From contig OZ246946.1 in assembly GCA_965232015.1 (NCBI GenBank), positions 3,302,612 through 3,366,611 on the forward strand: a DNA stretch of 64,000 bases, in the 5' to 3' direction. The DNA is from Vicinamibacteria bacterium. Its GTDB lineage: Bacteria > Acidobacteriota > Vicinamibacteria > Marinacidobacterales > Marinacidobacteraceae. Numbering within the stretch: position 1 is the first letter of the stretch; each line of letters opens with the position of its first letter. The translations under genes and the position numbers were made by a program. The notes beneath the pieces were generated by a model. The model saw only the letters and a program-made list of their open reading frames with translations. It was not told the origin of the DNA and made no database searches. Positions 30,253-51,061 of this stretch are shown in pieces.

Positions 30253-30282
30253 GGTGGAGGCTACGCCAAGTACGGCGGCAGC

Positions 30283-30907: not shown

Positions 30908-31061
30908 AATGAAAACCGGTTCCATCTTTCCCGAACGGCTCCGGCAGTCGAAGCTCGCGAAACGGCTCGCCGGCGCCGCCTTCCTGTTCTTCCTGATCAA
31001 GGGCCTGGTCTGGCTGGGCATCTTCGCGGCCGCGGCGTGGGCCGCCTGGCGGGTCTCGTGA
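30908..31061 (+). CDS. Small hypothetical membrane protein (50 aa)
   Basis: MKTGSIFPERLRQSKLAKRLAGAAFLFFLIKGLVWLGIFAAAAWAAWRVS has a single TM helix. Its stop overlaps the GTG start of the heme oxygenase gene (GTGA). Confidence 0.35.
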
Positions 31062-32022: not shown

Positions 32023-32161
32023 CGGCAGGCCCACAGCTTCAGAGTGCAGCCGAGGCTGGTAGGATGTTCCTTAACAGGAGGACTCGCTTCCGTGTTGCTT
32101 CGTTGCCGGGGCAACGACGGACTAGGAAGCGATCGAAATCCTGTCTCAGACCTACAGGAGC

Positions 32162-33162: not shown

Positions 33163-34215
33163 ATGCGAACGAATCGCGTGATCCACGCCGTGGATCTCCA
33201 CGCCGCCGGGGAGCCGGGCCGCGTGATCGTGGGTGGCGTGCTCGACGTGCCCGGCGCCACGATGTTCGAGAAGATGCAGCACCTGGAGCGGCACGGGGAC
33301 GGGCTGCGGAAGCTGATGCTGCGCGAGCCGCGGGGCTACCCCGCCTCGAACTGCAACCTGGTCCTTCCCCCGACCCACCCCGACGCCGACGCCGGGTTCG
33401 TGATCATGGAGCAGACCGAGTATCCGCCGATGTCGGGCACGAACACGATGTGCACGGTGACCGCTCTCCTCGAGACCGGGATGCTTCCGGCGAAGGAGCC
33501 GGTCACCGAACTCGTGCTCGAAACCCCCGCCGGGCTCGTGGGCGTCGAGGCCCGGGTCGAGGGCGGGAAGGTGACCCGGGTGACGTTCGAGAACGTGCCC
33601 GTCTTTCCGGTCCACCTGGGAGCAACGGTCGAGGTTCCGACTCTCGGCGGGGTCGAGGTGGATGTCGCCTGGGGCGGGATGTTCTACGCGATCGCCGAGG
33701 CGGCGCGGTTCGGCCTCCGGATCGCCCCCGAATGCGGCCGGGATCTCGCCCGGGTGGGGGCGATGGTGAAGCAGGCGGCGCGCGAGCAGCTCGAAGTGGT
33801 CCACCCCGAAAACCCCGAGATCCGCCAGGCGAGCATCGGCCAGCTCACCGGGCCGTGGGACCGGAAGACCCGCACCGCCTCGAACGCGGTGTCGGTGGCG
33901 ACCGGCGAACTCGACTGGGACCGGCCCGAGACCTGGACCGGCGCGCTCGACCGCTCCCCGTGCGGCACCGGGACCTGCGCCCGGATGGCGGTCCTCCACG
34001 CCCGCGGCGAGCTGGGGCTCGGAGAGGACTTCGTGAACCGGGGGCCGGTCGGCACCGAGTTCATCGGCCGGCTGGTGCGGCGCACGACGGTCGGCGGCGT
34101 ACCCGCGGTCGTTCCCACGATCAGCGGTGCGGCGTGGATCACCGGGATCGCCCAGTATTCGGTGGACCCGGCCGACCCGTTCCCGGAGGGCTTCACCCTC
34201 GGGGACATCTGGTAA
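33163..34215 (+). CDS. Proline racemase family enzyme (4-hydroxyproline 2-epimerase/proline racemase-like; both catalytic Cys present)
   Basis: 350 aa. 'MSGTNTMC' (first Cys) and 'SPCGTGTCA' (second Cys) are hallmark motifs of the PrdF/4-Hyp epimerase family. Confidence 0.85.
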   Translation: MRTNRVIHAVDLHAAGEPGRVIVGGVLDVPGATMFEKMQHLERHGDGLRKLMLREPRGYPASNCNLVLPPTHPDADAGFVIMEQTEYPPMSGTNTMCTVTALLETGMLPAKEPVTELVLETPAGLVGVEARVEGGKVTRVTFENVPVFPVHLGATVEVPTLGGVEVDVAWGGMFYAIAEAARFGLRIAPECGRDLARVGAMVKQAAREQLEVVHPENPEIRQASIGQLTGPWDRKTRTASNAVSVATGELDWDRPETWTGALDRSPCGTGTCARMAVLHARGELGLGEDFVNRGPVGTEFIGRLVRRTTVGGVPAVVPTISGAAWITGIAQYSVDPADPFPEGFTLGDIW

Positions 34216-34331
34216 GCGTCGAACGCACCGCGCGGCCGGCCGGCCCACTCGCCGGGCGGCGGGGGACCGCTGTCACCGGTCGCGGATATCATGTTTCGTT
34301 CGCCTGCGTGCGTCCGAGGAGGTCGTGCTCG

Positions 34332-36395
34332 ATGTTGTCCGAATCCGTGAACCCCATTCCGCCCGTCGCGAAGTCGCGTCGGTGTGTGCGCGTCGCCGCG
34401 TGGATCGTCGCCACCATGGCGCTCGCTGCTCCAGCCGCCGCCCAGGAGCCGACCGAGCTGGTGGTGACGCCGTCCGAGTTGACCCTCGAGGTCGGCGGCA
34501 CCGCCCAGCTCCAGGCCGAAGTCCGCGACGCCAGCGGCGCCGCCGTGGAGCGGCAGGTCGTCTTCTTCTCGCGCGCCCGACGCTACGTGGGCGTGACGCC
34601 CACCGGCATGGTGGAGGCGCACCGTCCCGGCGAGCACACGCTGATCGCGCTCGTGCCGGTGGAGGATGGCCCGGCGAGCCGGCGGTCCGAGGCCTCGGTC
34701 ATGGTCGAGATCCCGGTCTCGGTCGCGTGGCCGCCGCTCGCTTCGGTGGAAGTGGCGCCGCTGCCGTCGAGCCTCTACGCGCGGACGTCGCTCCCGGTGA
34801 GCGCCAGCGCGACCGACGAATCGGGCGCCGACCGGAAGCCGGAGTTCAACTGGAGCTCGAGTGACGCCTCGGTCGCGACCGTCAGCGAGCACGGGATGCT
34901 CATGCTCCACGGCGAGGGCTCGGCGACCATCACCGCTACCGCGGAGGGGGTCCGGGGAACGGCCGACCTCTCGGTCGCCGCCAATCCGGCGGTCCGCATC
35001 GAGGTGTCTCCCGACGGCGCCGAGGCGCGCACCGGCGATGTGGTGTGGCTGGAGGCTTCGGCTCTCGACGCGGCGGGGAACGCGGTGCCCGACTACCCGC
35101 TCCAGTACGCCGTCTTCACGCGTACTCCACCGAACCTCGTCGCCCCGGGCGCCGCGGCCTTCGTGGAGCCCGATGGGGCGTTCGTGGCCGAGCGCGCCGG
35201 TCTCCACACCGTCGTCGTATCCGGCGGAGGGCTCACCGCCCGGACCTCCCTCCGCGCCGTCCCCCGGGACATCAGGAAGGACTGGGAGATCGTGGGCCGT
35301 GGCCCGGTGCGCGACCGGCACACCTCGGATCTGTGGGTCTGGGAGGGTCTCGACGGACGCGACTACGCCGTCACCGGGACCTGGGGCGCCGACGGCCATG
35401 CTTACTTCTGGGATGTGACCGACCCGTCGAGCATTCATCTCGTGGACACCGTCCGGGTCAACGCCCGCACCGTGAACGACGTGAAGGTCTCGCCTGATGG
35501 CAAGTTCGCGGTGATCAGCCGCGAGGGAGCGTCGGACCGCAAGAACGGCCTCGTCGTGCTCGATGTCTCGAACCCGACCGACGGCGTTCGCATCCTGTCC
35601 CGCTACGACGATCAGTTGAGCGGCGGAGTCCACAACGTCTTCGTCGCCGAGGAGCACATCTACGCGCTTTCCGCGGGTCGTCGCTACGACATCCTGAACG
35701 CCGAGGATCCGGCGAACCCCTACCGGGTGGGACGGTTCGAGCTCGACACCCCCGGGCACGGCATCCACGACGTGTGGGTCCATGAGGGGATTGCGTGGTC
35801 CTCGAACTGGACCGACGGGATCGTGGCGGTGGATGTCGGCGGCGGCGAGCTCGGCGGCGCGCCGAACGACCCGAAGATGATCGGCAGCTTCACCTACCCG
35901 AGCGGCTGGAACCACGCCGGCTTCCCCTACCGCAGCCAGTCCACCGGCAAGATGCTCGTCTTCGCCGGAGACGAGAGCTTCCCCTGGACCTTCGATCCCG
36001 AGGGCGACCTGCCCGATCGCGCCGCCGGCTGGATCCACATCGCCGAGTGGGACGAGGAAGGCGGCGAGGGCCGCGAAGTGGCGCGTTACCAAGTGCCCGA
36101 GGCGGGCAGCCACAACGTGTGGGTCGAGGACGACATCCTCTACGTCGGCTACTACAACGGCGGGCTCCGGGTTGTGGACGTCTCGGGTGACCTCCGCGGC
36201 GACCTCTACACCCAGGGCCGCGAGATCGCCTTCTTCGAGCCCGCTGATCCCGACGGATACAAGAAGAACGCCCCCTTCGCGTGGGGCGCGCAGCCGTTCA
36301 AGGGCCACATCTTCCTCACCGACTGGAACTCCGGCCTGTGGGCGATGAAGCTGGTGGACCCGGAGACGCCCCGGAACATGGGAGAACCGCAGTGA
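34332..36395 (+). CDS. Secreted Big_2 (bacterial Ig-like) + LVIVD-repeat beta-propeller protein, paralog 1
   Basis: Signal peptide. N-terminal Big_2-like 'LVVTPSELTLEVGGTAQLQAEVRD'. Repeated LVIVD-type strands (GLVVLDVSNP, GIVAVDVGG, GLRVVDVSG). It is ~50% identical to the other three paralogs. Confidence 0.8.
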   Translation: MLSESVNPIPPVAKSRRCVRVAAWIVATMALAAPAAAQEPTELVVTPSELTLEVGGTAQLQAEVRDASGAAVERQVVFFSRARRYVGVTPTGMVEAHRPGEHTLIALVPVEDGPASRRSEASVMVEIPVSVAWPPLASVEVAPLPSSLYARTSLPVSASATDESGADRKPEFNWSSSDASVATVSEHGMLMLHGEGSATITATAEGVRGTADLSVAANPAVRIEVSPDGAEARTGDVVWLEASALDAAGNAVPDYPLQYAVFTRTPPNLVAPGAAAFVEPDGAFVAERAGLHTVVVSGGGLTARTSLRAVPRDIRKDWEIVGRGPVRDRHTSDLWVWEGLDGRDYAVTGTWGADGHAYFWDVTDPSSIHLVDTVRVNARTVNDVKVSPDGKFAVISREGASDRKNGLVVLDVSNPTDGVRILSRYDDQLSGGVHNVFVAEEHIYALSAGRRYDILNAEDPANPYRVGRFELDTPGHGIHDVWVHEGIAWSSNWTDGIVAVDVGGGELGGAPNDPKMIGSFTYPSGWNHAGFPYRSQSTGKMLVFAGDESFPWTFDPEGDLPDRAAGWIHIAEWDEEGGEGREVARYQVPEAGSHNVWVEDDILYVGYYNGGLRVVDVSGDLRGDLYTQGREIAFFEPADPDGYKKNAPFAWGAQPFKGHIFLTDWNSGLWAMKLVDPETPRNMGEPQ

Positions 36396-37528
36396 TCCGC
36401 CTCCGACTCCTCGCCCCGGCCCTCGCGGCCGCCTTCGCTCTCGCGCTCCCGGCCCTCGCCGAGGATCCGGAGCCGCCGAAGCGGAACTACTTCGTCTATG
36501 TGTGCGCCGAGTCGGACGACACGGTGCATCTCATCCGGTTCGGTCCCGGCGGCACCGCCGAGGTGGATCGGATCGCGGTGGGCAGTTTCCCCACCGAAAC
36601 CGAGGGGCCGCACGGGATCAACCTCTCGCCCGACGGGAAGTACTGGTTCCTCTCCATCGCCCACGGGATGCCGTTCGGATCGGTTCACAAGTACGAAACC
36701 GGCACGAACGAGTGGATGGGCGACGCGACCCTCGGCATGTTCCCGGCGACCATGGATATCTCGCCGAGCACCGGGCTGCTCTACGTCGTCAACTTCAACC
36801 TGCACGGCGACATGGTTCCGAGCACGATCTCGGTCGTGGAGACCGGCACCATGATCGAGGTCGCCACGATCGACACCGGGGTCATGCCCCACGGCGCCCG
36901 GATGAACGCGGACGGCACCCGGCTCTATTCGGTCAACATGATGGACGACGAGCTGGTCGAGGTGGACACCCTCCGGTTCGAGATCGCCCGTCGGCTCGCG
37001 TTGGGCACCGATCCGCCGGATCCCCACGCCGGCCACGCCGGCATGAGCGACATGGTGGGAGACATGAGCGGCATGCGGATGCCGGTCGTCAAGCCGACCT
37101 GGGCCACCAAGCCGTCGCCGGACGGGAAGGTGTACGTGGCCGGCAACGGCGACAGCGCCATTTACGAGGTGGATCTCGATTCGTGGGAGGTGTCCCGCCG
37201 GCTCGACGCCGGGCCCGGCGAGAACCCCTACAACCTCGAGATCACCTCCGACGGCAGCCTGCTGGTCGCCACCTACAAGTCGGGCAACAAGGTCGGCTTC
37301 TGGGATCTGGAGTCGGGATCGCTGATCGCGGCGCCCGAGACCACCCGCCGGGTTCCCCACGGCGTGGTCGTGACCGACGACGACCGCTACGCCCTGGTGA
37401 CTCTCGAGGGCGTCGGCGGCGAGCCGGGGACCGTCGAGGTCTATGACCTGTCCGTCGCCGAGCGCGTCGGAGAGGTGGACGTCGGCAAGCAGGCCGGCGG
37501 GATCATCTACTGGAACGGCCAACCCTGA
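36392..37528 (+). CDS. Secreted YVTN-family beta-propeller repeat protein
   Basis: 378 aa. The GTG start overlaps the stop of the preceding gene (GTGA). Signal peptide RLLAPALAAAFALALPALA. Repeated 'LYVVN/LYSVN/VYVAGNGD' propeller blades. Confidence 0.75.
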   Translation: MIRLRLLAPALAAAFALALPALAEDPEPPKRNYFVYVCAESDDTVHLIRFGPGGTAEVDRIAVGSFPTETEGPHGINLSPDGKYWFLSIAHGMPFGSVHKYETGTNEWMGDATLGMFPATMDISPSTGLLYVVNFNLHGDMVPSTISVVETGTMIEVATIDTGVMPHGARMNADGTRLYSVNMMDDELVEVDTLRFEIARRLALGTDPPDPHAGHAGMSDMVGDMSGMRMPVVKPTWATKPSPDGKVYVAGNGDSAIYEVDLDSWEVSRRLDAGPGENPYNLEITSDGSLLVATYKSGNKVGFWDLESGSLIAAPETTRRVPHGVVVTDDDRYALVTLEGVGGEPGTVEVYDLSVAERVGEVDVGKQAGGIIYWNGQP

Positions 37529-37572
37529 GGCGAGACGAGGAACCGACCCTTCCCGAGCGGAGAACGCGCACC

Positions 37573-39678
37573 ATGAACGAGCAATCCAGGAACGCCGGCG
37601 CCCTGCCGGCGCCCCGAACCCCGGTTCGGCAATTTTTCGCCGCCCTGGCGGCGGCCTTTCTGCTCTTCGCCGCCTCGGCCGCGGCGCAGGAGGAGGCCGA
37701 AGAGCCCACGGGGCCGCAGCCTTCCGAGCTGATCGTCACGCCGTCGGAGGTCACGCTGGAGGTCGGCGAGACGCTGACCCTCGAGGCCGAAGTCCGCGAT
37801 GAAGAGGGTGGCGTCATGGACCGGACCGTGGTGTTCTACTCGCGCCGCCGCCGGGCCGTGGGCGTGAACCCGGCGGGCATCGTGGAGGCGTATCGGCCGG
37901 GCGAGCACACCCTGATCGCCATGGTGCCGCGCGATCCCGAGGACAACAACCGCCGCGCCGAGCCCGCGGTTCAGGTCGAGATCCCGGTCACGATCCCGAA
38001 CCCGCCGGTGGCCACCGTCGAGGTCGCGAATCTGCCCGGTCGGCTCTATGCCGGAACCGAGATCAGCCTCCGCGCCCTCGTGACTGACACCTCCGGCGCC
38101 ACCCGCAACGATGTCGAGGTCGGCTGGAGTTCGAGTGATCCGTCGGTCGCCGAGGTGGATGCGCTCGGCGTCCTGACCCTGGCTGGCGCCGGCGGCGCCA
38201 CGCTGACCCTGACCGCGGAGGCGGTGAGCCATGACGCCGCGATCGAGGTCGCCGCGAACCCGGCCGCTTCGATCACGCTGGAGGCGAGGCTCGACCCGAA
38301 CGCGAGCGATCCGGTCCGCACCGGGGACGTGGTTTTCTTCGAGGCCGAGGTTCTCGACGCGAGCGGCGGCGCGGTGCCCGAGTACCCGGTCCAGTTCGCC
38401 TCGTTCGGGGTCGCCGCCGACGGCATCATCGCCCCCGGCGCCACCTCGCAGGTCGGCGCCGACGGGGCGTTCGTGGCCGAACGTCCCGGCACGCACACGG
38501 TGATCGCCGACGGGTTCACGGTGTCGGCGTCGGCTTCGGTCCGCGTCGTGTCCCGCAACGTGCGGAAGGACGTGGAGATCGTGGGGCAGGGGCCGGTCCG
38601 GGACCGGCGCACCTCGGATCTGTGGGTCTGGGAAGGAACCGACGGTCGCGACTACGCGGTCACCGGAACCCACAGCGCCGACGGGCACGCCTACTTCTGG
38701 GACGTGACCGACCCCTCGGCGATGGCGCTGATCGACACGGTCCGGGTGGACGCCCGCACGGTGAACGACGTGAAGGTGTCGGAGGACGCGAAGTTCGCGG
38801 TGATCAGCCGCGAAGGGGCGTCGAACCGGAAGAACGGGCTGGTGATCCTCGACGTGAGCGACCCGGCGAACGGGGTTCAGGTGATCGCCCGCTACGACGA
38901 CCAGCTCAGTGGCGGGGTGCACAACGTGTTCATCGCCGAGGAGCACATCTACGCGCTCTCGGCGGGCCGGCGGTACGACATCCTGAACGCGGAGGATCCG
39001 ACGAACCCGTACCGGGTGGGGCGGTTCGAGCTGGACACGCCGGGGCACTCGATCCACGACGTGTGGGTGCACGAGGGGATCGCGTATTCGTCGAACTGGA
39101 GCGACGGAGTGGTCGCGGTGGACGTGGGTGGCGGCGGCATGGGGGGCGCGCCGAACAACCCGGTGCTGCTGGGGAGCACGCCGTATCCGAGTGGCTGGAA
39201 TCACGCGGCGTTCCCGTATCGGAGCGAGTCCACCGGGAAGTTCCTGATGATCGGGGGCGACGAGGCCTTCCCCTACCAGACCATCCGGCAGCCGGAGACT
39301 CCGGGGCGGGCCGCGGGCTGGATCCACATCTACGAGTGGGACAACTGGGAGGAGCCGAAGGAAGTGGCGCGCTACCAGGTTCCGGAGGCGGGGACGCACA
39401 ACCTGTGGGTGGAGGACGACATCCTCTACATCGCCTACTACAACGCGGGCCTGCGGGTCGTGGACATCTCGGGCGAGCTGCGGGGGGATCTCTACCGCCA
39501 GGGACGGGAGATCGCCGCCTTCCTCCCGGAGGATCCCGAAGGGCACATCCCGAACGCTCCGATGACGTGGGGTCCGCAGCCCTACAAGGGCCACATCTTT
39601 CTCAGCGACATGAACTCGGGGCTGTGGGCGGTGAAGCTCGTGGACCCCGAACCGGTGTTCCTCGGCGAACCCCGGTAG
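37573..39678 (+). CDS. Secreted Big_2 + LVIVD-repeat beta-propeller protein, paralog 2
   Basis: 701 aa. Same architecture as paralog 1. Its C-terminal ~530 aa are >90% identical (and near-identical at DNA level) to paralog 4. Confidence 0.85.
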   Translation: MNEQSRNAGALPAPRTPVRQFFAALAAAFLLFAASAAAQEEAEEPTGPQPSELIVTPSEVTLEVGETLTLEAEVRDEEGGVMDRTVVFYSRRRRAVGVNPAGIVEAYRPGEHTLIAMVPRDPEDNNRRAEPAVQVEIPVTIPNPPVATVEVANLPGRLYAGTEISLRALVTDTSGATRNDVEVGWSSSDPSVAEVDALGVLTLAGAGGATLTLTAEAVSHDAAIEVAANPAASITLEARLDPNASDPVRTGDVVFFEAEVLDASGGAVPEYPVQFASFGVAADGIIAPGATSQVGADGAFVAERPGTHTVIADGFTVSASASVRVVSRNVRKDVEIVGQGPVRDRRTSDLWVWEGTDGRDYAVTGTHSADGHAYFWDVTDPSAMALIDTVRVDARTVNDVKVSEDAKFAVISREGASNRKNGLVILDVSDPANGVQVIARYDDQLSGGVHNVFIAEEHIYALSAGRRYDILNAEDPTNPYRVGRFELDTPGHSIHDVWVHEGIAYSSNWSDGVVAVDVGGGGMGGAPNNPVLLGSTPYPSGWNHAAFPYRSESTGKFLMIGGDEAFPYQTIRQPETPGRAAGWIHIYEWDNWEEPKEVARYQVPEAGTHNLWVEDDILYIAYYNAGLRVVDISGELRGDLYRQGREIAAFLPEDPEGHIPNAPMTWGPQPYKGHIFLSDMNSGLWAVKLVDPEPVFLGEPR
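38160..39640. repeat. ~1.5-kb near-identical dispersed repeat (internal to LVIVD paralog 2), partner at ~48180-49680
   Basis: Long stretches are identical by eye (for example 38231-38503 vs 48270-48542 give identical out-of-frame ORF translations). A more diverged third copy lies at ~40250-41740. Confidence 0.75.
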
Positions 39679-39712
39679 ATCCCGGCGGCCTCTCCCGGTC
39701 GCCCGCCGTCCC

Positions 39713-41773: not shown

Positions 41774-41847
41774 GGACCGCTTCCGGCGCGGAGCCGGGGA
41801 GGATCCGGGACGTGGTTGTCGCGCGTCGCCGATGGGAGGAATCCACC

Positions 41848-42822: not shown

Positions 42823-43017
42823 CGCTCGCCACGCACGGTCCGGTGCGGCGGGTTCTGACTTCAGTCAAGGCTCTCGGAGCCATCGCCGAGCCGGAGCGCG
42901 GCGGCCTCCATCCGGATCCGCCCGGGTTGGCGCCGCGCCGGACCGCGACTCGATCCCGCCGGCGACTCGAGTCACCACCCGAGTCACACCGTCGCCGTAG
43001 CGCCGGCGACGCCGGTC

Positions 43018-46000
43018 TCAGCGCCGCCCGGCGGCGTCTCCTGGTCGCCCCGCGTCGAGGTCCGCCGCCCCCTCGCTGTCTCCCCCGTTCCGTCGGGCCC
43101 CGAACCGGTAGGTGAGACCGATCTTCAGGCGGCGGCTCTTCGGGTTGTGCGTCAGGCCGTCGAACCCCTGCTCGTAGTCAACGCGGGGTGGCGGCTCGTC
43201 GGTCAGGTTCAGCGCCGAGAATGTGACGGTCACTCCGTTGTCGAGCCGCCACCGGACGTTGGCGTCCCACGTCAGGAACGGCTCGATGAAGGGGGTGCGG
43301 GTCCAGACGTAGCGGTCCTCGTATGAGGAGATGTGGTTGACCCAGCTCAACAGGCTGATGTCGTTCCAGTGGTAGCCAACCGACGCCCGCGTCTTCATCT
43401 TCGGCAGCGGCGGCGCGACCGGAATCTCCCGGTTGAACGCGCCCGCTACATCCTGCGCCTCGGTGAAACGAACGCCATCCATCTCCAGGGCGCGCAGGCG
43501 GTACTCCAGCAGCATGGTCGTGTCGAGGGTGGCGGAGAACCGGCCAGGCCCGGCATCGAAACGGGCGCCGACGCGCCAGTCGAAGCCCGACGTCTCGACG
43601 CCGGGCCAGTTGGTCAAGTCCACCCGCACCCGCTCGATGTTGGCGGGGCTGCACGACCCGTCCGTCGCGCCGCCGGGGCAGAACACGCGGTGCTGCACCG
43701 CATCCAGCCGCCGCTGCCGTTCGTCCCGGGTCAGACCGGAGTCGTTTCCAGTGGCGTCGATGTAGAGCTGGACAACGTTGTCGTAGGGCAGTGGCGCGAT
43801 CACTTCCGAGAAGTCGTACGTCCAGTAGTCGAATGTCATTTCGATGCCCGGCGTCGCGAACAGGACGAGGCCAACGTTCCAGGTCAGCGCCTCCTCGGGT
43901 ACGAGGTTGCGGCTGCCGTAAGCGTCCACCGCCTTGTACGCCCCCACGGTGTCGAACCACTCGAGCGTCGTTCGGACATCCTCGTTCAGGTCGTCCACGG
44001 ACGGCGCCCGGAAGGTGGACTGCACCGAGCCGCGCAGGGACAGGGCGTAGTTGGCGGACTCCATGATCTGCATGGTCGCCGCCGCCTTGGGATCGAAGCT
44101 GCTCACGGTGTCGTGGATCTCGTAGTTCGCGGCGAGCTGCGCGTCGAGTCGGGGGCCGATGTTCAGCGGGATCTCACCGAAGACCCGGTGCACGGTCTGG
44201 CTGGCCGCGTACGGGTGGAAGCCGGGAGTGAAGGTGAACGGGCCGACGACGGATCCGGTGAACCGTCCCCGGGCATCGATGCACGACCGGTCGCCTGGCG
44301 CCAGACACGGGTTGAGCGACAGGTTCGCCGCGTCGTTCGGGGTGGCCGACACGTCGAACCGCCGGAATTGGTAGCCGACGGCGTAGCTCGCCACGTCCTC
44401 GATCAGGGTTCCGCTCAGCGTCGCATCGCTGACCAGCAAGCCGGCCGTGCTCTTCAGGTTGACCTCCTCGTTGATCCAGTCGCGCAACGCGGCGCTGTTC
44501 GCCAGGGCCGGGTCGAAGGCCGGGTTCGCCGTGTGCTCGTAGGCCGCGCCCGGCTGCGCGGAGAACTGGAGGGCGTTGCTGAACGGGTTGTAGTACATGC
44601 AGTCGCCCTGGCCGGCCACTCGGTCGCCGACGCCGCCGAGCGCCAGACCCGAGGGCGACCGGGCGTCCGCCACGACGCCGACCCCGCAGGTCGGTCCCCC
44701 GTAGCCGCGGAACGCGAGGAACTTGCGGTACGCGTACTCGGCCGGCTGGTTCATGTTCCCGGCGGCGCGCGAGTAGCTGACGCCCACATCGAGGGAGGCG
44801 TCCCGCTCGCCGAATCTCAGGTCGCGCGCCACCGAAGCGGCGAGGCGCCCGGTGCTCGACTTGCGGCTCAGGGTGCGCCCGGGACCGCTGTTGCCGATCA
44901 GGCGGCCATAGAAGTACCAGTCGTCGGACGCGAGGCAGTCGTCCGCGGACGCGAACCCCGCCGCGCCGTAATCCGACCCGCAAAACGCCTGTCGCCCCGG
45001 ATTGTCCGGCTCGACCACCTGGAGCCCGTCGAACAGCGACACCGGCGGGAAGGACGGCGTCGTGAGGTAGTCCGGTACCCGGGCGTCGGCCCAGAGGGCC
45101 TCCAGATGGTAGGTGGTCCGGTCGTCCATCGGACCGTTCAGTTCGAAGAACGCCCGCGTGTGCTCCTGCTCCTCGATGAGGGTGTCCCAGATCTGGTAGC
45201 GGAACGCGCACGTGTTCGAGAGCAACGCGCCCCCGAGTTCCTCGCACGCCGGGTCGATGAAGAAGTCCCCGGCATCGCGCGCGCCGGCGAGCGTGGAGAC
45301 GAGGTCGGCGCCCGCCAACGATGGCGTGAGGAAGGCCCCGGGGTTGCCCGTGCTCGACCAGCCCCAGAACGTCTCCGAGCGGGTGCGCACGGCCCAGTCC
45401 CGCTCGATCAGATCCAGCTCCTGGCGGTCAACCCGCTCCACCGAAAGGACCGCGCGAGCCGGTCCGATTTTCCCACCCCAGATCGCGCCGAACGTCGTAT
45501 CGCCGGCGCCGTCGAAGTCGTCGTGCGAGGCCGAGATCTCCAGACCCTCGAAGTCGTCTCGGGTCACGAAGTTGGCGACGCCGGCCACCGCGTCCGACCC
45601 GTAGATGGCCGCTGCCCCCTCCTTGAGCACCTCGATCCGGTCGAGCGCGATCGCCGGGAAGACGTTCACGTCCACGAAGCGCCCGCCGAAGAGGCGGGCG
45701 GGGACCGGGGTCTGTCGCCGGCCGTTGAAGAGCACCAGGGTTCGCGACGCCCCGAGACCGCGCAGGTTCACGTTGGCCACCGTCTCCGGCACCGACAGTG
45801 CCTGGTCGTTGTACCAACTGTTCGCCTCGCCGATGACCGCGCTGCTCGCGCCCAGGTTCTTGAAGAAGTCGGTGACCGGCAGCGAGCCCAGCTCCTCCAG
45901 CTCCTCGCGGTCCACGACGGCCACCGCGTAGGGCAGATTGATGGGGGGTTCATCGAACGCCGTGCCGGTGACCGCGACCGTGACCTCTTCGAACAGGCTG

Positions 46001-46356
46001 CCGATCTGGAGGACAGCGTCGATCGTCGCCGTCGCCCCCGCCGCCAGCTCGACGCTGTCCCGCGACGCGGAAAGAAAGCCCGGCAACGTGAACGAGACCG
46101 TGTAGGTCCCCGCCGGCAGCCCGCTGAACGCATAGCGCCCCTCGGTGTCCGTCACCTCGAGTCGCGGCGCGCCGGCCAGCGGGGGGCCGGCCACCTCGAC
46201 CGTCGCTCCCGGCAGGACGCCTCCGGTGTCGTCGGTCACGGTCCCCGTGATTCCTCCGCGCTGGGCAAGCGCGGGAAGCGGCAGCGCGACCAGGCACAGC
46301 ACGAGCCGGAAATGTCTGGAGGGACTGATCCGACGACGCTGCACCCGAAGTTTCAC
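43018..46356 (-). CDS. TonB-dependent outer-membrane receptor with N-terminal carboxypeptidase-regulatory-like domain
   Basis: Signal peptide (LVLCLVALPLPALAQ). CarboxypepD_reg-like 'GITGTVTDDTGGVLPGATVEV...GRYAFSGLPAGTYTV'. Plug-like 'RIEVLKEGAAAIYGSDAVAGVANFVTR'. Long barrel. GTG start at 46356; the ORF extends to 46677. Confidence 0.8.
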   Translation of the reverse strand: MKLRVQRRRISPSRHFRLVLCLVALPLPALAQRGGITGTVTDDTGGVLPGATVEVAGPPLAGAPRLEVTDTEGRYAFSGLPAGTYTVSFTLPGFLSASRDSVELAAGATATIDAVLQIGSLFEEVTVAVTGTAFDEPPINLPYAVAVVDREELEELGSLPVTDFFKNLGASSAVIGEANSWYNDQALSVPETVANVNLRGLGASRTLVLFNGRRQTPVPARLFGGRFVDVNVFPAIALDRIEVLKEGAAAIYGSDAVAGVANFVTRDDFEGLEISASHDDFDGAGDTTFGAIWGGKIGPARAVLSVERVDRQELDLIERDWAVRTRSETFWGWSSTGNPGAFLTPSLAGADLVSTLAGARDAGDFFIDPACEELGGALLSNTCAFRYQIWDTLIEEQEHTRAFFELNGPMDDRTTYHLEALWADARVPDYLTTPSFPPVSLFDGLQVVEPDNPGRQAFCGSDYGAAGFASADDCLASDDWYFYGRLIGNSGPGRTLSRKSSTGRLAASVARDLRFGERDASLDVGVSYSRAAGNMNQPAEYAYRKFLAFRGYGGPTCGVGVVADARSPSGLALGGVGDRVAGQGDCMYYNPFSNALQFSAQPGAAYEHTANPAFDPALANSAALRDWINEEVNLKSTAGLLVSDATLSGTLIEDVASYAVGYQFRRFDVSATPNDAANLSLNPCLAPGDRSCIDARGRFTGSVVGPFTFTPGFHPYAASQTVHRVFGEIPLNIGPRLDAQLAANYEIHDTVSSFDPKAAATMQIMESANYALSLRGSVQSTFRAPSVDDLNEDVRTTLEWFDTVGAYKAVDAYGSRNLVPEEALTWNVGLVLFATPGIEMTFDYWTYDFSEVIAPLPYDNVVQLYIDATGNDSGLTRDERQRRLDAVQHRVFCPGGATDGSCSPANIERVRVDLTNWPGVETSGFDWRVGARFDAGPGRFSATLDTTMLLEYRLRALEMDGVRFTEAQDVAGAFNREIPVAPPLPKMKTRASVGYHWNDISLLSWVNHISSYEDRYVWTRTPFIEPFLTWDANVRWRLDNGVTVTFSALNLTDEPPPRVDYEQGFDGLTHNPKSRRLKIGLTYRFGARRNGGDSEGAADLDAGRPGDAAGRR

Positions 46357-46835
46357 GACCGAGAGTGTCACACCGAGCGCCCACCGACGAGCGCGAGGAA
46401 GGTCGTCAGGTTCGAAGGACGAGTGGAGCGAGGGCTTTCCATCGGTCGGGCGTGAATCGCCACCTGGAGACAGGCGACCGGCCCCACCGGCTCGCTGCTC
46501 TGGCTTCGCACCGAACCGCTGCGAGGCAGGCATCGAAAATTCATGTGGACCCGGCGGGCGCCCCTTGCGAGGACGGCCCAGCGCGGCTAAAACACGGGAA
46601 TTGAGCCGCGGCGCCGATTTCCTCCGGCGAGCGGCCGATTCGAGGCCCTGCGAAGAGGGCCGAGACGACCTTGCCACGACCGATCGGTCGGGCGTGGAAC
46701 CGCCACCAGGAGACCGGCGACCTGCCCACTACGGCCCACTTCCCGGCTCCCCGCGCGGGTCCGCCTTCCCGCCGCACGCCGCACCGGAGCGTCGGATCCG
46801 GGACATCGCGAAGCTCGAGGCGCCAGCGAGAGGTC

Positions 46836-47540
46836 GTGGCGGAGGACCACCTGGATCTCGTGTCCTCGATCGCCCGCCGGTACCGGGGTTACGGACTGCC
46901 GTACGACGATCTGGTGCAGGAGGGGACGCTGGGGCTTCTCGCGGCGGTTCGAAACTACGACACGAAGCGCGGCGTACCCTTCCGGGCGTACGCGGCCCGT
47001 TGGATCCGGCAGGCGATCTGTCGGGGGGTCTCGATCCGGTGCCGCATCATTCGCATCCCGCTCGACGTCCTTCAGATTCGCCGGCGCCTGCATCAGGTGA
47101 GAGCGCAACTGGAACAGGAGGCGGCAGCGTCCGGACGCTCGCCGACCGTCGAGGAGTGCGCCCGGGTCATGGGCGTCACGCCCGATGTGCTGCGGACCAC
47201 GCTCCGGCGGGTGCCGGAGTTCACCTCGCTCGACGCTCCGCGCGGCGGGAAGGGTATGTCGCTCGTTCCGCTGCCGCCGGACACCCGTCCCTGTCCCTTC
47301 GCCTCGGCGGCGTCCCGGGAGCGAGGTCGGCTCCTGCGATCGGCCATCGCCGAACTGCCCGGCCGGTTGGGGCGGGTGATGCGTCGTCGCTACGGCATCC
47401 GTGGCCACGAGGCGGCCACCCTCGCGCAGATCGGGGCGGAGCTGGGCGTCTCCCGCGAGCGGGCGCGGCAGCTCCACAACCGGGGGATCATGCTGCTCCG
47501 GCAAAACGCCCGTCTCCGGGCCGGCTGCGGCAGCGACTGA
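46836..47540 (+). CDS. Sigma-70 family RNA polymerase sigma factor (group 3, FliA/sigma-28-like; regions 2, 3 and 4)
   Basis: Region 2 'DLVQEGTLGLLAAVRNYDTKRGVPFRAYAARWIRQAI'. Region 4 HTH 'ATLAQIGAELGVSRERARQLHNRGIMLLR'. The GTG start at 46836 is a proposal; the ORF begins at 46671. Confidence 0.65.
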   Translation: MAEDHLDLVSSIARRYRGYGLPYDDLVQEGTLGLLAAVRNYDTKRGVPFRAYAARWIRQAICRGVSIRCRIIRIPLDVLQIRRRLHQVRAQLEQEAAASGRSPTVEECARVMGVTPDVLRTTLRRVPEFTSLDAPRGGKGMSLVPLPPDTRPCPFASAASRERGRLLRSAIAELPGRLGRVMRRRYGIRGHEAATLAQIGAELGVSRERARQLHNRGIMLLRQNARLRAGCGSD

Positions 47541-47647
47541 CCCCCCGAACCACCCCCGGCTCGTTCCGGCGCGGCGGGCTCGGCTGACCGGGGATGCCGG
47601 GCGCGTATATTCCGTTCCGGAGGACCGCAACCGGTACCCGCTCGAAC

Positions 47648-49717
47648 ATGATCCGACTCTCCTCTCTCTCCTCGATCACCCGGGCGGTTCTCGCCCTGCT
47701 GCTCCTTGCTCCGGTCGCGTTCGCACAGGAGGACGCGAGCGAGACCACCGCCGCCGAACCGGCCGAGCTCGTGGTCACGCCCGCCGAGTTGACGCTCGAA
47801 GTCGGGGATCAGCTCGTCCTGCAGGCCGAGGTGCGCGACGCCGAGGGCAACGCGCTCGACCGGACCGTCATCTACTTCTCCCGGGCGCGCCGGTCGGTGG
47901 GAGTGAACCCCGCCGGCGTCGTCGAGGCCTACCGGCCCGGCGAACACACGCTGATCGCCATGGTGCCGCGCGATCCCGAAAACGCCGACCGGCGCTCCGA
48001 ACCCGCAGTCCGCGTCGAGATCCCGGTCACCATCCCGAACCCTCCGGTCGCCTCGGTCGAAGCGGTGAACCTGCCCGGGAGGCTCTACGCCGGCACCCAG
48101 GTCGCTCTCGAGGCCAGGGTGACGGACATCTCGGGAGCGATCCGCAACGACGTGGAAGTGGAGTGGAGCAGCAGTGATCCATCGGTCGCCGACATGGATG
48201 CGCTCGGCGTCCTGACCCTGGCTGGCGCCGGCGGCGCCACGCTGACCCTGACCGCGGAGGCGGTGAGCCATGACGCCGCGATCGAGGTCGCCGCGAACCC
48301 GGCCGCTTCGATCACGCTGGAGGCGAGGTCCGACGCGAACGCGAGCGATCCGGTCCGAACCGGGGACGTGGTCTTCTTCGAGGCCGAGGTTCTCGACGCC
48401 AGCGGCAGCGCGGTGCCCGAGTACCCGGTCCAGTTCGCCTCGTTCGGGGTCGCAGCCGACGGCATCATCGCCCCCGGCGCCACCTCGCAGGTCGGCGCCG
48501 ACGGGGCGTTCGTGGCCGAACGTCCCGGCACGCACACGGTGATCGCGGACGGGTTCACGGTGTCGGCGTCGGCTTCGGTCCGCGTCGTGTCCCGCAACGT
48601 GCGGAAGGACGTGGAGATCGTGGGACAGGGGCCGGTCCGGGACCGGTACACCTCGGATCTGTGGGTGTGGGAGGGGACCGATGGCCGCGACTACGCCATC
48701 ACCGGAACGTGGGGCGCCGACGGGCACGCCTACTTCTGGGACGTGACCGACCCCTCGGCGATGGCGCTGATCGACACGGTCCGGGTGGACGCCCGCACGG
48801 TGAACGACGTGAAGGTGTCGGAGGACGCGAAGTTCGCGGTGATCAGCCGCGAAGGGGCGTCCAACCGGAAGAACGGGTTGGTGATCCTCGACGTGAGCGA
48901 CCCGGCGAACGGGGTTCAGGTGATCGCCCGCTACGACGACCAGCTCAGTGGCGGGGTGCACAACGTGTTCATCGCCGAGGAGCACATCTACGCGCTCTCG
49001 GCGGGCCGGCGCTACGACATCCTGAACGCGGAGGACCCGACGAACCCGTATCGGGTGGGCCGGTTCGAGCTGGACACGCCGGGGCACTCGATCCACGACG
49101 TGTGGGTGCACGAGGGGATCGCGTATTCGTCGAACTGGAGCGACGGGGTGGTCGCGGTGGACGTGGGTGGCGGCGGCATGGGGGGCGCGCCGAACAACCC
49201 GGTGCTGCTGGGGAGCACGCCGTATCCGAGCGGCTGGAATCACGCGGCGTTCCCGTATCGGAGCGAGTCCACCGGGAAGTTCCTGATGATCGGGGGCGAC
49301 GAGGCCTTTCCCTACCAGACCATCGGCGAGACCGGCACTCCCGACCGGGCCGCGGGCTGGATCCACATCTACGAGTGGGACGACTGGGATGAGCCGAGGG
49401 AAGTGGCGCGCTACCAGGTTCCGGAGGCGGGGACGCACAATCTGTGGGTGGAGGACGACATCCTCTACATCGCCTACTACAACGCGGGTCTGCGGGTCGT
49501 GGACATCTCGGGCGAGCTGCGCGGGGATCTCTACCGCCAGGGACGGGAGATCGCCGCCTTCCTGCCCCAGGATCCCGAGAGCTTCGTCCCGAACGCCCCG
49601 ATGGCGTGGGGCCCGCAGCCCTGGAAGGGCCACATCTTCCTCGCCGACCACCACTCCGGACTGTGGGCGCTGAAGCTGGTGGAGCCCGAGCCGGTCTTCC
49701 TCGGCGAGCCGCAGTAG
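47648..49717 (+). CDS. Secreted Big_2 + LVIVD-repeat beta-propeller protein, paralog 4
   Basis: Start chosen at MIRLSSLSS...signal peptide; the ORF extends to 47594. It is near-identical to paralog 2 over ~530 aa. Confidence 0.85.
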   Translation: MIRLSSLSSITRAVLALLLLAPVAFAQEDASETTAAEPAELVVTPAELTLEVGDQLVLQAEVRDAEGNALDRTVIYFSRARRSVGVNPAGVVEAYRPGEHTLIAMVPRDPENADRRSEPAVRVEIPVTIPNPPVASVEAVNLPGRLYAGTQVALEARVTDISGAIRNDVEVEWSSSDPSVADMDALGVLTLAGAGGATLTLTAEAVSHDAAIEVAANPAASITLEARSDANASDPVRTGDVVFFEAEVLDASGSAVPEYPVQFASFGVAADGIIAPGATSQVGADGAFVAERPGTHTVIADGFTVSASASVRVVSRNVRKDVEIVGQGPVRDRYTSDLWVWEGTDGRDYAITGTWGADGHAYFWDVTDPSAMALIDTVRVDARTVNDVKVSEDAKFAVISREGASNRKNGLVILDVSDPANGVQVIARYDDQLSGGVHNVFIAEEHIYALSAGRRYDILNAEDPTNPYRVGRFELDTPGHSIHDVWVHEGIAYSSNWSDGVVAVDVGGGGMGGAPNNPVLLGSTPYPSGWNHAAFPYRSESTGKFLMIGGDEAFPYQTIGETGTPDRAAGWIHIYEWDDWDEPREVARYQVPEAGTHNLWVEDDILYIAYYNAGLRVVDISGELRGDLYRQGREIAAFLPQDPESFVPNAPMAWGPQPWKGHIFLADHHSGLWALKLVEPEPVFLGEPQ
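48180..49680. repeat. Partner copy of the ~1.5-kb near-identical repeat (internal to LVIVD paralog 4)
   Basis: See 38160-39640. Confidence 0.75.
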
Positions 49718-49762
49718 TTCCGGACCGATCCGAGCGCTCACCCCATCGACAAGGAGAAACCG

Positions 49763-51061
49763 ATGTTCCCGAACCGCGCTGACCGCCTGACCGCCTCGCT
49801 GCGCCGCTTCCCGATCACCGCCGCTCTCGCCGCGGCGTTCATCGCCGCATCCTGCGGGGGCGGGGAGGAGGTCCCCGCGTCCACCGCGGTGGCCTACACC
49901 GGGGCGGGCCTGATCGTCGGCGACGGGACCGGACCGATCGCCGATTCGGTCATCGTGGTGGATGGCGGCCGGATCACCGCCGCCGGACCGGCGTCGTCCG
50001 TGGAGGTCCCGGCGGGCGCGGAGCGGGTCGAGCTCTCCGGCCGGTTCGTGATCCCGGCGCTCGTGGACACCCACGTCCACTTCCGGCTCCCGCGTGAGGA
50101 TCTCGTGGACGACCTCCATCGCCGGGCGTGGTACGGGGTCGGCCTCGCCCTCAGCCTGGGTCTCGAGGGGCTGGAAGATGCCGTCTTCGAAGCGCGCGGG
50201 GAGACGATCCCCGAGGCGGCCCGCGCCATGACCGCTGGTCCCGGCATCACCCGGCCGGAGCCGGGCCGCTCCGAGATTCCCTACTGGATCAATACGCCCG
50301 AAGAGGGCCGCGCCGCGGTCCGCGAGCTCGCCGTGAAGAACGTGGACATCGTGAAGGTCTGGGTGGACGACCGGAACGACCAGTACGAGAAGCTGACCCC
50401 GGAGCTCTATGGCGCGGTGATTGACGAGGCCCACCAGCACGGCCTCCGGGTGGCCGCCCACATCTTCGATCTCGAGGACGCCAAGGGGCTGCTGGCAGCC
50501 GGCGTGGACGCCTTCGCCCACAGCGTTCGGGACATGGACGTGGACGACGAGTTCGTGGCGATGGTCCAGGAGCGGCCCGACGTGGTTCTGATCCCGAACC
50601 TCGGGAGCCGGGGCGCTTTCGAGGATGTCTCGTGGCTGTCGGGCACGATCCCGGCCGAGGAGCTGGAGGCGCTGCAGGAGCAGTATCGGGAGCGCCCGGA
50701 GATCCAGGAGGCCTTCGCCATCCAGGCGCGCAACCTGGCGCGGCTGAACGAGGCCGGGATGAAGATCGTGATGGGGACCGACGGGAACGGCCCCTACCGG
50801 CCCCACATCGAGATGCTGGACATGGTCGAGGCCGGGATGAGCCCCCACGAGGTTCTCGTGGCCTCCACCGGCGCGGGAGCGGAGTTCCTCGGGCGCGGTG
50901 ACGAGGTCGGGACGATCACCGCCGGCAAGTCAGCCGACTTCGTGGTGCTCGAGGCGAACCCGCTCGAGGACATCAGGAACACCCGCCGGATCGAGGCGGT
51001 TTATCTGCGCGGCGAGCGGGTGGATCGGGAGGGGATGAGCGCCGGCTGGGTAGGCCAGTAG
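49763..51061 (+). CDS. Amidohydrolase-family metal-dependent hydrolase lipoprotein
   Basis: Lipobox AAFIAASCGG. 'PALVDTHVHF' HxH metal motif, '...AHIFD...' and 'MGTDGNGP' are typical of the amidohydrolase superfamily (Xaa-Pro dipeptidase/imidazolonepropionase-like). Confidence 0.8.
   Translation: MFPNRADRLTASLRRFPITAALAAAFIAASCGGGEEVPASTAVAYTGAGLIVGDGTGPIADSVIVVDGGRITAAGPASSVEVPAGAERVELSGRFVIPALVDTHVHFRLPREDLVDDLHRRAWYGVGLALSLGLEGLEDAVFEARGETIPEAARAMTAGPGITRPEPGRSEIPYWINTPEEGRAAVRELAVKNVDIVKVWVDDRNDQYEKLTPELYGAVIDEAHQHGLRVAAHIFDLEDAKGLLAAGVDAFAHSVRDMDVDDEFVAMVQERPDVVLIPNLGSRGAFEDVSWLSGTIPAEELEALQEQYRERPEIQEAFAIQARNLARLNEAGMKIVMGTDGNGPYRPHIEMLDMVEAGMSPHEVLVASTGAGAEFLGRGDEVGTITAGKSADFVVLEANPLEDIRNTRRIEAVYLRGERVDREGMSAGWVGQ

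Follow-up and report, generated by a model that had tools for sequence, protein, structure and literature searches.

The locus examined here, positions 33163 to 51061 of a 64,000-nucleotide stretch of Vicinamibacteria bacterium DNA (hereafter the window), raises the question of what a family of four secreted β-propeller proteins, each carrying Big_2 immunoglobulin (Ig)-like domains and LVIVD repeats (the LV paralogs), contributes to the organism, and whether the enzymes encoded around them disclose a substrate. A sequence-only reading had proposed that this is a locus for the capture and use of collagen or other hydroxyproline (Hyp)-rich peptides, in which LVIVD proteins act at the surface, a TonB receptor takes up the products and expression is under a sigma factor of its own. 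The gene content underlying that proposal was largely borne out, with two details wrong (a catalytic residue pair and the class of the sigma factor), and is as follows:

g1, 33163..34215, + strand: proline-racemase-superfamily (PRS) enzyme, 350 aa, without signal peptide; Ser91/Cys267 dyad
g2, 34332..36395, + strand: LV paralog 1, 687 aa; signal peptide, about three Big_2 domains, seven-bladed LVIVD propeller
g3, 36392..37528, + strand: secreted YncE/YVTN-type seven-bladed propeller, 378 aa; disordered His/Met-rich loop
g4, 37573..39678, + strand: LV paralog 2, 701 aa; Pfam Big_2 and LVIVD
g5, 39713..41773, + strand: LV paralog 3, 686 aa; Pfam Big_2 and LVIVD
g6, 41848..42822, + strand: OCD/mu-crystallin-family NAD(P)-dependent enzyme, 324 aa; GGAGG motif, then GTG start
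g7, 43018..46356 (open reading frame to 46677), - strand: TonB-dependent receptor; Pfam PF13620, PF07715 and PF00593
g8, 46671..47540 (start uncertain, 46671 to 46833), + strand: sigma-70-family factor; regions 2, 3 and 4
g9, 47594..49717 (alternative start at internal Met 47648), + strand: LV paralog 4, 707 aa; Big_2 and LVIVD
g10, 49763..51061, + strand: lipoprotein amidohydrolase, 432 aa; Pfam Amidohydro_1; cog1228 dipeptidase/carboxypeptidase group

By their coordinates, the genes are separated by intergenic gaps of 34 to 117 nt from g1 to g6 and of 45 to 53 nt from g8 to g10. Terminator and promoter scans of the locus produced matches no better than chance, and operon structure is thus inferred from gene spacing alone. 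The window gave no matches when scanned for tRNA and Rfam families, and a repeat search near the g6-g9 segment recovered short, weak matches only and no rearrangement boundaries. A literature search on Ca. Marinacidobacterium and Multivorans found no papers, and an exact-sequence look-up (P0001) gave no match.

The enzymes flanking the LV paralogs are those on which a hydroxyproline reading depends. The g1 protein belongs to the PRS family (PF05544; E 1e-116, 390 bits against a cut-off of 27, profile positions 2 to 325 of 325), as had been proposed, but it does not have the two catalytic cysteines attributed to it: the first catalytic motif is PMS91GTN, with Ser, and the second DRSPC267GTG, with Cys. 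The same dyad occurs at both motifs in 4q2h and 4lb0 and has been reported for a 4-Hyp 2-epimerase cluster (PMC4113996). The best PDB matches of g1 are 4k8l, 1tm0 and 4k7g, and its backbone is nearest to the Ser/Thr cluster of trans-3-hydroxy-L-proline (t3Hyp) dehydratases (t3HypD; 4k7g), in which the second catalytic position is Thr where g1 has Cys. T3LHypDht is its best NCBIfam model, and g1 falls below the cut-offs of both t3Hyp dehydratase equivalogs (363 versus 550 bits for NF047722 and 251 versus 540 bits for NF045511). We consider g1 a candidate hydroxyproline 2-epimerase and/or t3Hyp dehydratase.

The predicted OCD/mu-crystallin-family enzyme is likewise present, g6 matching PF02423 over its full length (E 2e-42, 145.7 bits against a cut-off of 24). 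It lies below all NCBIfam equivalog cut-offs, including those of the Pyr2C-reductase models (110 of 322 bits for PRK06141, 97.5 of 266 for PRK07340 and 67.8 of 400 for LhpI, NF045512) and that of the true ornithine cyclodeaminase model (91 bits against 350). Among PDB entries it comes closest to the archaeal AlaDH 1omo (130 bits), with the Pyr2C reductase 6t3e at 64 bits. We treat g6 as a candidate imine (Pyr2C) reductase. The lipoprotein amidohydrolase described previously corresponds to g10, which combines Amidohydro_1 with a lipobox, IAASC, read from the sequence. Its nearest relatives are cog1228 Xaa-Pro/Xaa-Arg dipeptidases, and its PDB matches include 2p9b ("possible prolidase"), 3mtw (Arg carboxypeptidase) and 2qs8 (Xaa-Pro dipeptidase). 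The fold and the C-terminal half are common to g10 and the cog1228 members Cc2672 Arg carboxypeptidase and the Sgx9260 prolidases (3mtw, 2qs8, 3feq; E 1e-24 to 1e-15), but at 125 bits g10 is far under the 500-bit cut-off of the Xaa-Pro dipeptidase equivalog NF051886, and an Xaa-Pro, Xaa-Arg or other specificity is possible.

The co-occurrence of racemase-family and mu-crystallin-family enzymes had been taken as the signature of bacterial hydroxyproline catabolism. Such a neighborhood signature is indeed published (Zhao et al. 2014, PMC4113996), but it marks the catabolism of t3Hyp and not that of 4-Hyp; the t3Hyp pathway consists of t3HypD and a Pyr2C reductase (Zhao et al. 2014 eLife, PMC4113996; Watanabe et al. 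2014 cited therein). As in that pair, g1 and g6 are on the same strand and within ∼8 kb, but with four secreted-protein genes between them. Genes of the 4-Hyp route (DAAO, DHDPS and aldehyde/KGSA dehydrogenase) were found neither in the window nor in the scanned gene gaps of relatives.

We compared the neighborhoods of 70 acidobacterial LV loci, calling ORFs with a crude, GC3-based caller and ignoring antisense shadow ORFs (clusters 4, 9, 10, 14 and 15). A YncE-like gene resembling g3 (52 to 91% identity) adjoins the LV gene in 63 of the 70, while PRS enzymes are neighbors in 18, amidohydrolases in 10 and OCD-family enzymes in 4 to 5; none of the last three was found in the 47 more distant loci. 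A block of the form PRS-LV-YncE-LV-LV(-LV)...amidohydrolase...OCD recurs in at least 5 genomes of Ca. Marinacidobacterium/Vicinamibacteria, all from one clade with 76 to 92% identity, for which inheritance by descent is possible. The co-occurrence that the sequence-only reading anticipated between LV genes and PRS and OCD genes thus holds in the close clade and disappears beyond it, and because these genes and the amidohydrolase are restricted to the closest relatives, the hydroxyproline reading amounts to clade-specific synteny. In other lineages the LV module has unrelated neighbors, namely 2-oxoglutarate dehydrogenase, MoxR/vWA, sulfatase or PhoX genes. We also considered the MoxR-vWA-beta-propeller ternary system, but the MoxR neighbor scores 209 bits against AAA_3 and only 46 against bpMoxR, and is absent from the window.

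The receptor and the sigma factor distribute differently again. The g7 protein contains the carboxypeptidase-regulatory, plug and barrel domains expected from the earlier description (PF13620, 67 bits; PF07715, 60 bits; PF00593, 66 bits), and the position of its signal peptide points to translation starting near 46356. A sigma factor does sit directly upstream of paralog 4, with g8 ending at 47540, 53 nt before g9, but it is not the sigma-28-like protein it was said to be: its best NCBIfam matches are RpoD/RpoS/SigB-type models (138 to 160 bits, those of the RpoD/RpoS type 148 to 160, all below their own cut-offs), which outrank the FliA/WhiG model TIGR02479 (70 bits against a cut-off of 189.6). 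Counterparts of g7 and g8 occur in none of the 70 related acidobacterial loci, one of which is 88 to 92% identical to this one. Of the LV loci compared, only the one in this genome carries the TonB receptor and the sigma factor, and a "dedicated" role for either finds no counterpart in the relatives.

Taken together, these observations make a collagen or Hyp-rich peptide capture-and-use locus, with all of its proposed parts, unlikely. The published PRS and OCD signature (PMC4113996), the recurrent block and the prolidase-like character of g10 argue for it. Exopeptidases of three unrelated families (M28, M19 and cog1228) also adjoin LV genes in different lineages. Sponges are rich in collagen, and the isolate names of many related metagenome-assembled genomes look like those of sponge-symbiont bins. 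Against it stand a receptor and a regulator without counterparts even in the locus at 88 to 92% identity, the absence of all three enzymes from the more distant loci, the missing 4-Hyp downstream genes, the Ser/Cys instead of Cys/Cys pair in g1, the position of g6 under the cut-offs of every Pyr2C-reductase model and a sigma factor unlike sigma-28. A hydroxyproline link of the locus is, in our assessment, plausible but unproven.

The LV proteins offer a different entry to the function of the locus. The four paralogs share 65 to 87% protein identity, have lengths of 686 to 707 aa and all exceed the Pfam gathering cut-offs for LVIVD (PF08309; 32.3, 34.8, 23.7 and 35.0 bits against 20.2) and Big_2 (PF02368; 55.2, 41.5, 31.5 and 33.4 bits against 22.8), in agreement with the common architecture first described. 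Each has a putative signal peptide, recognized in the sequence as a hydrophobic N-terminal stretch that ends in AxA/AQE. The most divergent copy is g2 (65 to 67% identical to the other three), whose orthologue is directly upstream of the g3 counterpart in relatives. At the DNA level g5 is 82% identical to g4, and g9 is 94 to 99% identical to g4 across its 3' two thirds, which indicates recent duplication or gene conversion. The family is large, with >4,000 close matches in the searched database 205 representative clusters at an E value of ≤1e-30 and at least 567 loci in GTDB representatives. Members from different phyla are still 43 to 69% identical and share invariant His, Asp, Arg and Tyr positions. 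LVIVD/Big_2 proteins are annotated merely as "Ig-like domain-containing" or hypothetical, and neither the PF08309 nor the TIGR04312 family definition has a function attached. The latter describes choice-of-anchor B proteins, to which the LV paralogs are partly similar across the last two blades; they score 58 to 76 bits, under the 100-bit cut-off, match the model in its C-terminal portion only and have no evident alternative C-terminal sorting signal.

LVIVD proteins had been described as functionally uncharacterized, a statement that misses a relative with a solved structure and known activity. When a predicted model of the g4 propeller domain (residues 326 to 701) was compared with the PDB using Foldseek, the top match was 5hrm (E 2.3e-11, TM 0.73), ∼200-fold ahead of the runner-up. 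This entry, together with 5ioj, represents Sb-PTE, the phosphotriesterase (haloalkylphosphorus hydrolase) of Sphingobium sp. TCM1, which, like the LV proteins, is a seven-bladed β-propeller with LVIVD-like repeats. An hmmsearch of the PDB with the LV family profile gave propeller-region matches solely to 5hrm and 5ioj (5hrm, E 9.5e-11), and a global hhalign comparison of the LV family with a 583-aa Sb-PTE orthologue returned 97.3% probability (E 5.5e-11) over 350 columns. The relationship surfaced in the PDB only with a diverse family profile; searches with the g4 single sequence or a full-length profile recovered Ig-like domains only. Since Sb-PTE itself is below the Pfam LVIVD threshold, the link is invisible to routine annotation.

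Correspondence extends to the metal site. Sb-PTE has a binuclear Mn center, the ligands of which we take to be H258, H317, H389 and H475 together with bridging E201 and E407; all 12 positions compared for this purpose carry the right residue types in the Sb-PTE orthologue. HMMER local alignments to 5hrm had their repeats out of register and were dropped for ligand mapping in favor of global hhalign, in which the four presumed His ligands align exactly with g4 H450, H495, H544 and H609. The two carboxylates are off-register beside alignment gaps, with acidic residues near both: E201 is 2 to 3 residues from N398/D399 and E407 is 1 to 2 residues from E564/D563. The residues H450, H495, H544, H609, N398, D399, D496 and D563 (g4 numbering) are invariant in 46 orthologues, a set that takes in Acidobacteriota and sequences whose sources label them Planctomycetota and Rhodothermales; E564 is retained in at least 90% of the set. 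Ligand-equivalent residues are unchanged across g2, g4, g5 and g9; some distant LV family members are without the histidines.

The resemblance has clear limits. Sb-PTE, the sole member with known activity or metal content, is only 16 to 23% identical to the LV proteins, which carry ∼320 extra N-terminal residues in the form of Ig-like domains. The LV propeller is shorter (376 residues versus ∼470), with several long blade insertions of Sb-PTE missing, and is devoid of Cys where Sb-PTE has three disulfides. The Sb-PTE orthologue, as read from its sequence, also has an N-terminal export-like segment, but the genes around this orthologue encode an SDR, an enoyl-CoA hydratase and IS6100, whereas LV genes come with a conserved YncE-like partner. 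The LV substrate need not be a phosphotriester. On this comparison, the LV paralogs resemble metal-dependent hydrolases that are secreted and share ancestry with Sb-PTE. Their LVIVD propellers, earlier cast in a surface binding or processing role, fit better with catalysis at an Sb-PTE-like metal site. The competing view that they are noncatalytic adhesins or S-layer-like proteins, with Ig domains and propeller as a binding scaffold and histidines whose role is structural, directly or through a bound structural metal, seems improbable to us: adhesins are not usually this similar between phyla, with His, Asp, Arg and Tyr positions held invariant, each of the invariant histidines matches a catalytic metal ligand in the one solved structure with significant similarity, and no anchoring signal is evident, choice-of-anchor B being below its cut-off.

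The other conserved element is g3. As first described, it is a YVTN propeller whose GTG start overlaps the g2 stop, by 4 nt (GTGA), and the LV-YncE pairing recurs with a 4-nt overlap in a Planctomycetota contig (L072) and with spacings of 2 and 7 nt in two further contigs (L076 and L078). The protein is set apart from E. coli YncE, archaeal YVTN surface-layer propellers and BtuG by invariants of its own (four PHG/AHG histidines, NMM and GKQAGG), by a His/Met-rich disordered insert and by its fixed genomic pairing with a hydrolase-like LV gene. It is not a second Sb-PTE-like enzyme, an idea we rejected after hhalign gave the g3 family only 4.8% probability against Sb-PTE. That the pair instead forms a periplasmic redox metalloenzyme (for example with copper, like N2O reductase or thiocyanate dehydrogenase), with g3 catalytic or serving in electron transfer, strikes us as very doubtful.

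We lean, by a narrow preference, toward the explanation that an old two-gene module, consisting of an Sb-PTE-type LV hydrolase and its YncE-like partner, has been tandemly amplified here, with a clade-specific use in proline or Hyp metabolism being possible. Both proteins would be exported via Sec. We infer from the aligned residues that two divalent metal ions would be bound at the top of the LV central channel by H450, H495, H544 and H609 and the carboxylates D399 and D563/E564 (g4 numbering), and that a metal-bridged hydroxide could then attack an ester or amide bond of an extracytoplasmic substrate, while the Ig-like domains may place the enzyme or a polymeric substrate. The YncE-like partner, presumably in a fixed ratio with LV, might deliver metal or assist maturation, or else serve as the subunit that binds substrate. 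Amplification in the Ca. Marinacidobacterium clade has brought the module to 3 to 5 copies on one strand, with the predicted cytoplasmic Ser/Cys PRS enzyme on one side and the lipoprotein prolidase-like amidohydrolase and OCD enzyme on the other. These flanking genes suggest that LV products in this clade may be Pro/Hyp-containing peptides, from which trimming would release imino acids for conversion to L-proline.

More broadly, we tentatively suggest, at a lower level of confidence, that Big_2+LVIVD and YncE-like proteins constitute a widespread and unrecognized two-propeller extracytoplasmic metallohydrolase system, whose members number in the thousands across Acidobacteriota, Planctomycetota and Rhodothermales, that this could be the natural source family of the flame-retardant phosphotriesterase Sb-PTE, and that it may have been recruited to Pro/Hyp peptide salvage in related marine Vicinamibacteria, where it is present in 3 to 5 copies. 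The racemase, prolidase-like and OCD flanks provide a concrete and cheap substrate hypothesis, Pro/Hyp peptides, although not an established one. If the His4/carboxylate site is functional, >4,000 close members would gain a testable assignment as binuclear metallohydrolases, the conserved YncE-like partner would call for an explanation, and the family would represent a natural reservoir for a fold relevant to organophosphate bioremediation.

The window has a G+C content of ~70%, and gene calling by codon-position GC (GC1 ~0.7, GC2 ~0.5, GC3 ~0.9) resolved ten genes, g1 to g10, between 33.1 and 51.1 kb.

Genes of the locus and their Pfam domains (window coordinates)
33163-34215, g1, Pro_racemase
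34332-36395, g2, Big_2 + LVIVD
36392-37528, g3, YNCE/lactonase-type propeller
37573-39678, g4, Big_2 + LVIVD
39713-41773, g5, Big_2 + LVIVD
41848-42822, g6, OCD_Mu_crystall
43018-46356/46677, minus strand, g7, CarboxypepD_reg + Plug + TonB barrel
~46671-47540, g8, Sigma-70 regions 2, 3 and 4
47594-49717, g9, Big_2 + LVIVD
49763-51061, g10, Amidohydro_1, lipobox AASC

The Pfam search agrees with the domain calls of the earlier sequence-only reading, including Big_2 plus LVIVD in four paralogs (g2, g4, g5 and g9, hereafter LV; 65-87% protein identity). The overlapping start of g3 also holds: its GTG at 36392 shares GTGA with the g2 TGA and is followed by a clean signal peptide. That reading described the locus correctly overall, except for two details, the catalytic cysteine pair of g1 and the sigma-28 type of g8. 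Another CarboxypepD_reg-type TonB-dependent receptor (OMP_b-brl_4) is encoded at the window start (240-3425), and with at least two such receptors in 64 kb, less can be inferred from the nearness of g7 to the LV genes.

The Big_2+LVIVD family appears to be a remote relative of the Sphingobium sp. TCM1 phosphotriesterase (Sb-PTE; PDB 5hrm/5ioj) that retains its metal-ligand set. AlphaFold2 modelled the g4 propeller confidently (pLDDT 90.6, pTM 0.90) from an alignment of 46 sequences drawn from g4 homologues; the model has 28 strands, consistent with seven blades. For comparison we used a 583-aa Sb-PTE orthologue encoded on a Sphingobium xenophagum plasmid (L071:1802-3553). The metal ligands of Sb-PTE are E201, H258, H317, H389, E407 and H475, and its disulfide cysteines are 146/242, 411/443 and 542/559; all 12 residues occur at the expected positions in the orthologue. 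Global hhalign of the LV family against it (97.3% probability, E 5.5e-11, 350 columns) maps H258, H317, E318, H389 and H475 onto g4 H450, H495, D496, H544 and H609, with E201 and E407 falling 1-3 residues off N398/D399 and D563/E564, beside alignment gaps. H450, H495, H544, H609, N398, D399, D496 and D563 do not vary across the 46 aligned sequences, E564 is conserved in at least 90% of them, and the four window paralogs have all nine. Given this alignment and the conserved ligand-equivalent residues, the paralogs are best read as putative binuclear-metal hydrolases that are secreted and bear Ig-like domains at the N terminus, and we consider the metallohydrolase assignment reasonably probable. 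Divergence among the paralogs falls mostly in the first ~600 nt of DNA, the Ig-like region, as might be expected if recognition of substrates or partners had diversified around a conserved catalytic core.

In L001, the nearest relative (88-92% identity), the order is racemase-LV-YncE-LV-LV-amidohydrolase, followed by the downstream genes that the window also has; the g6-g7-g8-g9 segment has therefore been rearranged or inserted in this genome. Consistent with this, g9 and g4 DNA are 94-99% identical over the 3' two thirds (~38150-39500 versus ~48200-49550); identity is just 47-78% over the first ~600 nt, and the pattern suggests a recent partial gene conversion or duplication that left the signal peptide and the first Ig-like region untouched. 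Immediately upstream of the locus is a lower-GC stretch (0.60-0.68; 27440-32989) with a phage-integrase-family gene, a heme-oxygenase-like ORF, a weak DUF429 ORF and an AAA_21/AbiEii-like ATPase (28430-30145, minus strand). AAA_21 genes also lie inside relatives' LV clusters (L011:3985-5700, L020:3527-4693, L057:17328-18431), and the region appears to be a hot spot for insertions. Elsewhere in the window, a gene for DarT (ssDNA thymidine ADP-ribosyltransferase) overlaps the DarT1-associated NADAR antitoxin gene that comes after it (3548-4826), and the two look like a toxin-antitoxin or defence pair. Other genes there are:

8919-11570, minus strand, S8 subtilase with lower GC3 (0.69-0.75), adjoining the next gene
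11507-12595, minus strand, AAA ATPase
19057-21933, second S8 subtilase
4891-6288, 6869-8041 and 23741-25717, three AAA_14/DUF4143 ATPases

Homologues of g4 number more than 4,000 at E≤1e-5, with several copies on many contigs. Among GTDB species representatives, a scan confirmed 567 matches, and we analysed 70 of these loci, all from Acidobacteriota MAGs (by title Vicinamibacteria, Ca. Marinacidobacterium, Thermoanaerobaculia, Ca. Multivorans or Holophagae), by tblastn of the window proteins (≥50% query coverage, ±10 kb). A g3 homologue was found at 63 of the 70, adjacent every time. Racemase-family (18/70), amidohydrolase (10/70) and OCD genes (4/70, or 5/70 with a looser threshold) were confined to the closest clade (L001-L023 and L057), in the order racemase-LV-YncE-LV-LV(-LV)...amidohydrolase...OCD. 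The receptor and the supposedly dedicated sigma factor were each found at none of the 70 and belong to no conserved unit. Outside the Acidobacteriota, a Planctomycetota contig carries an LV gene and then a YncE-like gene with a 4-nt overlap, and the pair is 2 nt and 7 nt apart on two further contigs. That start and stop codons overlap in two phyla speaks for LV and YncE-like proteins working as partners in a fixed ratio. In two other relatives, one of which its source names Rhodothermales, the place downstream is taken by an esterase-like gene and an M19 dipeptidase.

The g3 family is large and annotated "YncE family protein". Among the residues invariant in a 31-sequence alignment are four PHG/AHG histidines (H74, H91, H167, H323), an NMM motif and GKQAGG. 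A His/Met-rich insert between blades (residues ~205-230, PHAGHAGMSDMVGDMSGMRMP) varies widely in length among orthologues: a few lack it, and at the other extreme it spans over 60 residues of HxxH repeats. It is predicted disordered in the g3 model (overall pLDDT 87.4) and resembles a loop for metal binding. The fold is that of a generic YVTN propeller, and the best matches (S-layer YVTN domain, lactonases, NosZ, YncE, thiocyanate dehydrogenase, BtuG) do not settle its function, which may be metal delivery or maturation, or substrate binding. Direct comparison ruled out g3 itself as an Sb-PTE relative.

The sequence-only reading proposed a hydroxyproline-peptide capture locus, and is partly supported. 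Neighbouring racemase-family and OCD genes are a published signature of t3Hyp catabolism (Zhao et al. 2014, PMC4113996), and with the LV cluster and the amidohydrolase they form a block syntenic in at least five related genomes; the association is confined to a single clade (76-92% identity), in which common descent would be expected to preserve synteny. Instead of both catalytic cysteines, g1 has PMS91GTN (Ser) and DRSPC267GTG (Cys). A Ser/Cys dyad is reported for a cluster with 4-Hyp 2-epimerase activity and a Ser/Thr dyad for t3Hyp dehydratases that belong to a cluster of mixed function (Zhao et al. 2014, PMC4113996); the former is visible in chains 4lb0 and 4q2h aligned with g1. Because the g1 backbone is nearest the Ser/Thr group (4k8l, 1tm0, 4k7g; 290-303 bits) yet its dyad is Ser/Cys, epimerase, dehydratase or both are candidate reactions; NCBIfam T3LHypDht scores 363 bits, under its 550-bit cut-off. 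Upstream of the racemase-family gene, relatives conserve a secreted FG-GAP/UnbV_ASPIC repeat protein (L001:784-2439, L002:1098-3170, L011:425-2119, L020:1762-3489), a domain absent from the window genes scanned. The OCD gene g6 reached no cut-off among OCD-family equivalogs, neither Pyr2C reductase nor true ornithine cyclodeaminase. Prolidase-like g10 is nearest cog1228 dipeptidases/carboxypeptidases (2p9b "possible prolidase", 3mtw, 2qs8), with 125 bits on NCBIfam Xaa-Pro dipeptidase (cut-off 500). For g1, g6 and g10 alike the specific function is at candidate level, which counts against the hydroxyproline proposal. The sigma factor g8 is not sigma-28-like, scoring 70 bits on FliA/WhiG (cut-off 190) and 138-160 bits on its nearest models, of RpoD/RpoS/SigB type.

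Just 3' of their LV genes, different lineages carry exopeptidases from three families unrelated to one another (M28, M19, cog1228 amidohydrolase; L076:11431-12360, L075:4548-5524, L077:6828-8090, window 49763-51061), which may point to peptide processing; a PhoX phosphatase is also present in L077, and a RidA-family gene in L076. Against a hydroxyproline role, no DAAO, DHDPS or aldehyde dehydrogenase gene occurs anywhere in the window, the scanned gaps in relatives' clusters hold AAA_21-type ATPase genes and no Hyp-pathway genes, and in other lineages the LV-YncE pair adjoins 2-oxoglutarate dehydrogenase, MoxR/DUF58/vWA, sulfatases or PhoX. The MoxR operon (unknown gene, MoxR (AAA_3), DUF58, second unknown gene, vWA gene) adjoins the pair in 17-24 loci (among them L025-L052, e.g. 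L027:13347-21314); these are loci with Thermoanaerobaculia or Ca. Multivorans in the title and two Marinacidobacterales loci. A functional link, for instance metal insertion with the help of MoxR, would be conceivable. A Tenderiales preprint likewise describes an LVIVD protein that is conserved, with BatABD genes and a secreted protein without known function as neighbours. We regard even a clade-specific link of the LV cluster to Pro/Hyp peptides as rather doubtful.

The probable kinship with Sb-PTE, together with the conserved YncE-like partner, is the solider and more general finding. The Sb-PTE orthologue scores 16.2 bits on Pfam LVIVD, below the 20.2 cut-off, and has no meaningful NCBIfam match, so domain annotation hides the kinship of this phosphotriesterase with LVIVD proteins. 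Through that kinship, a large "hypothetical" Big_2+LVIVD family becomes directly testable.
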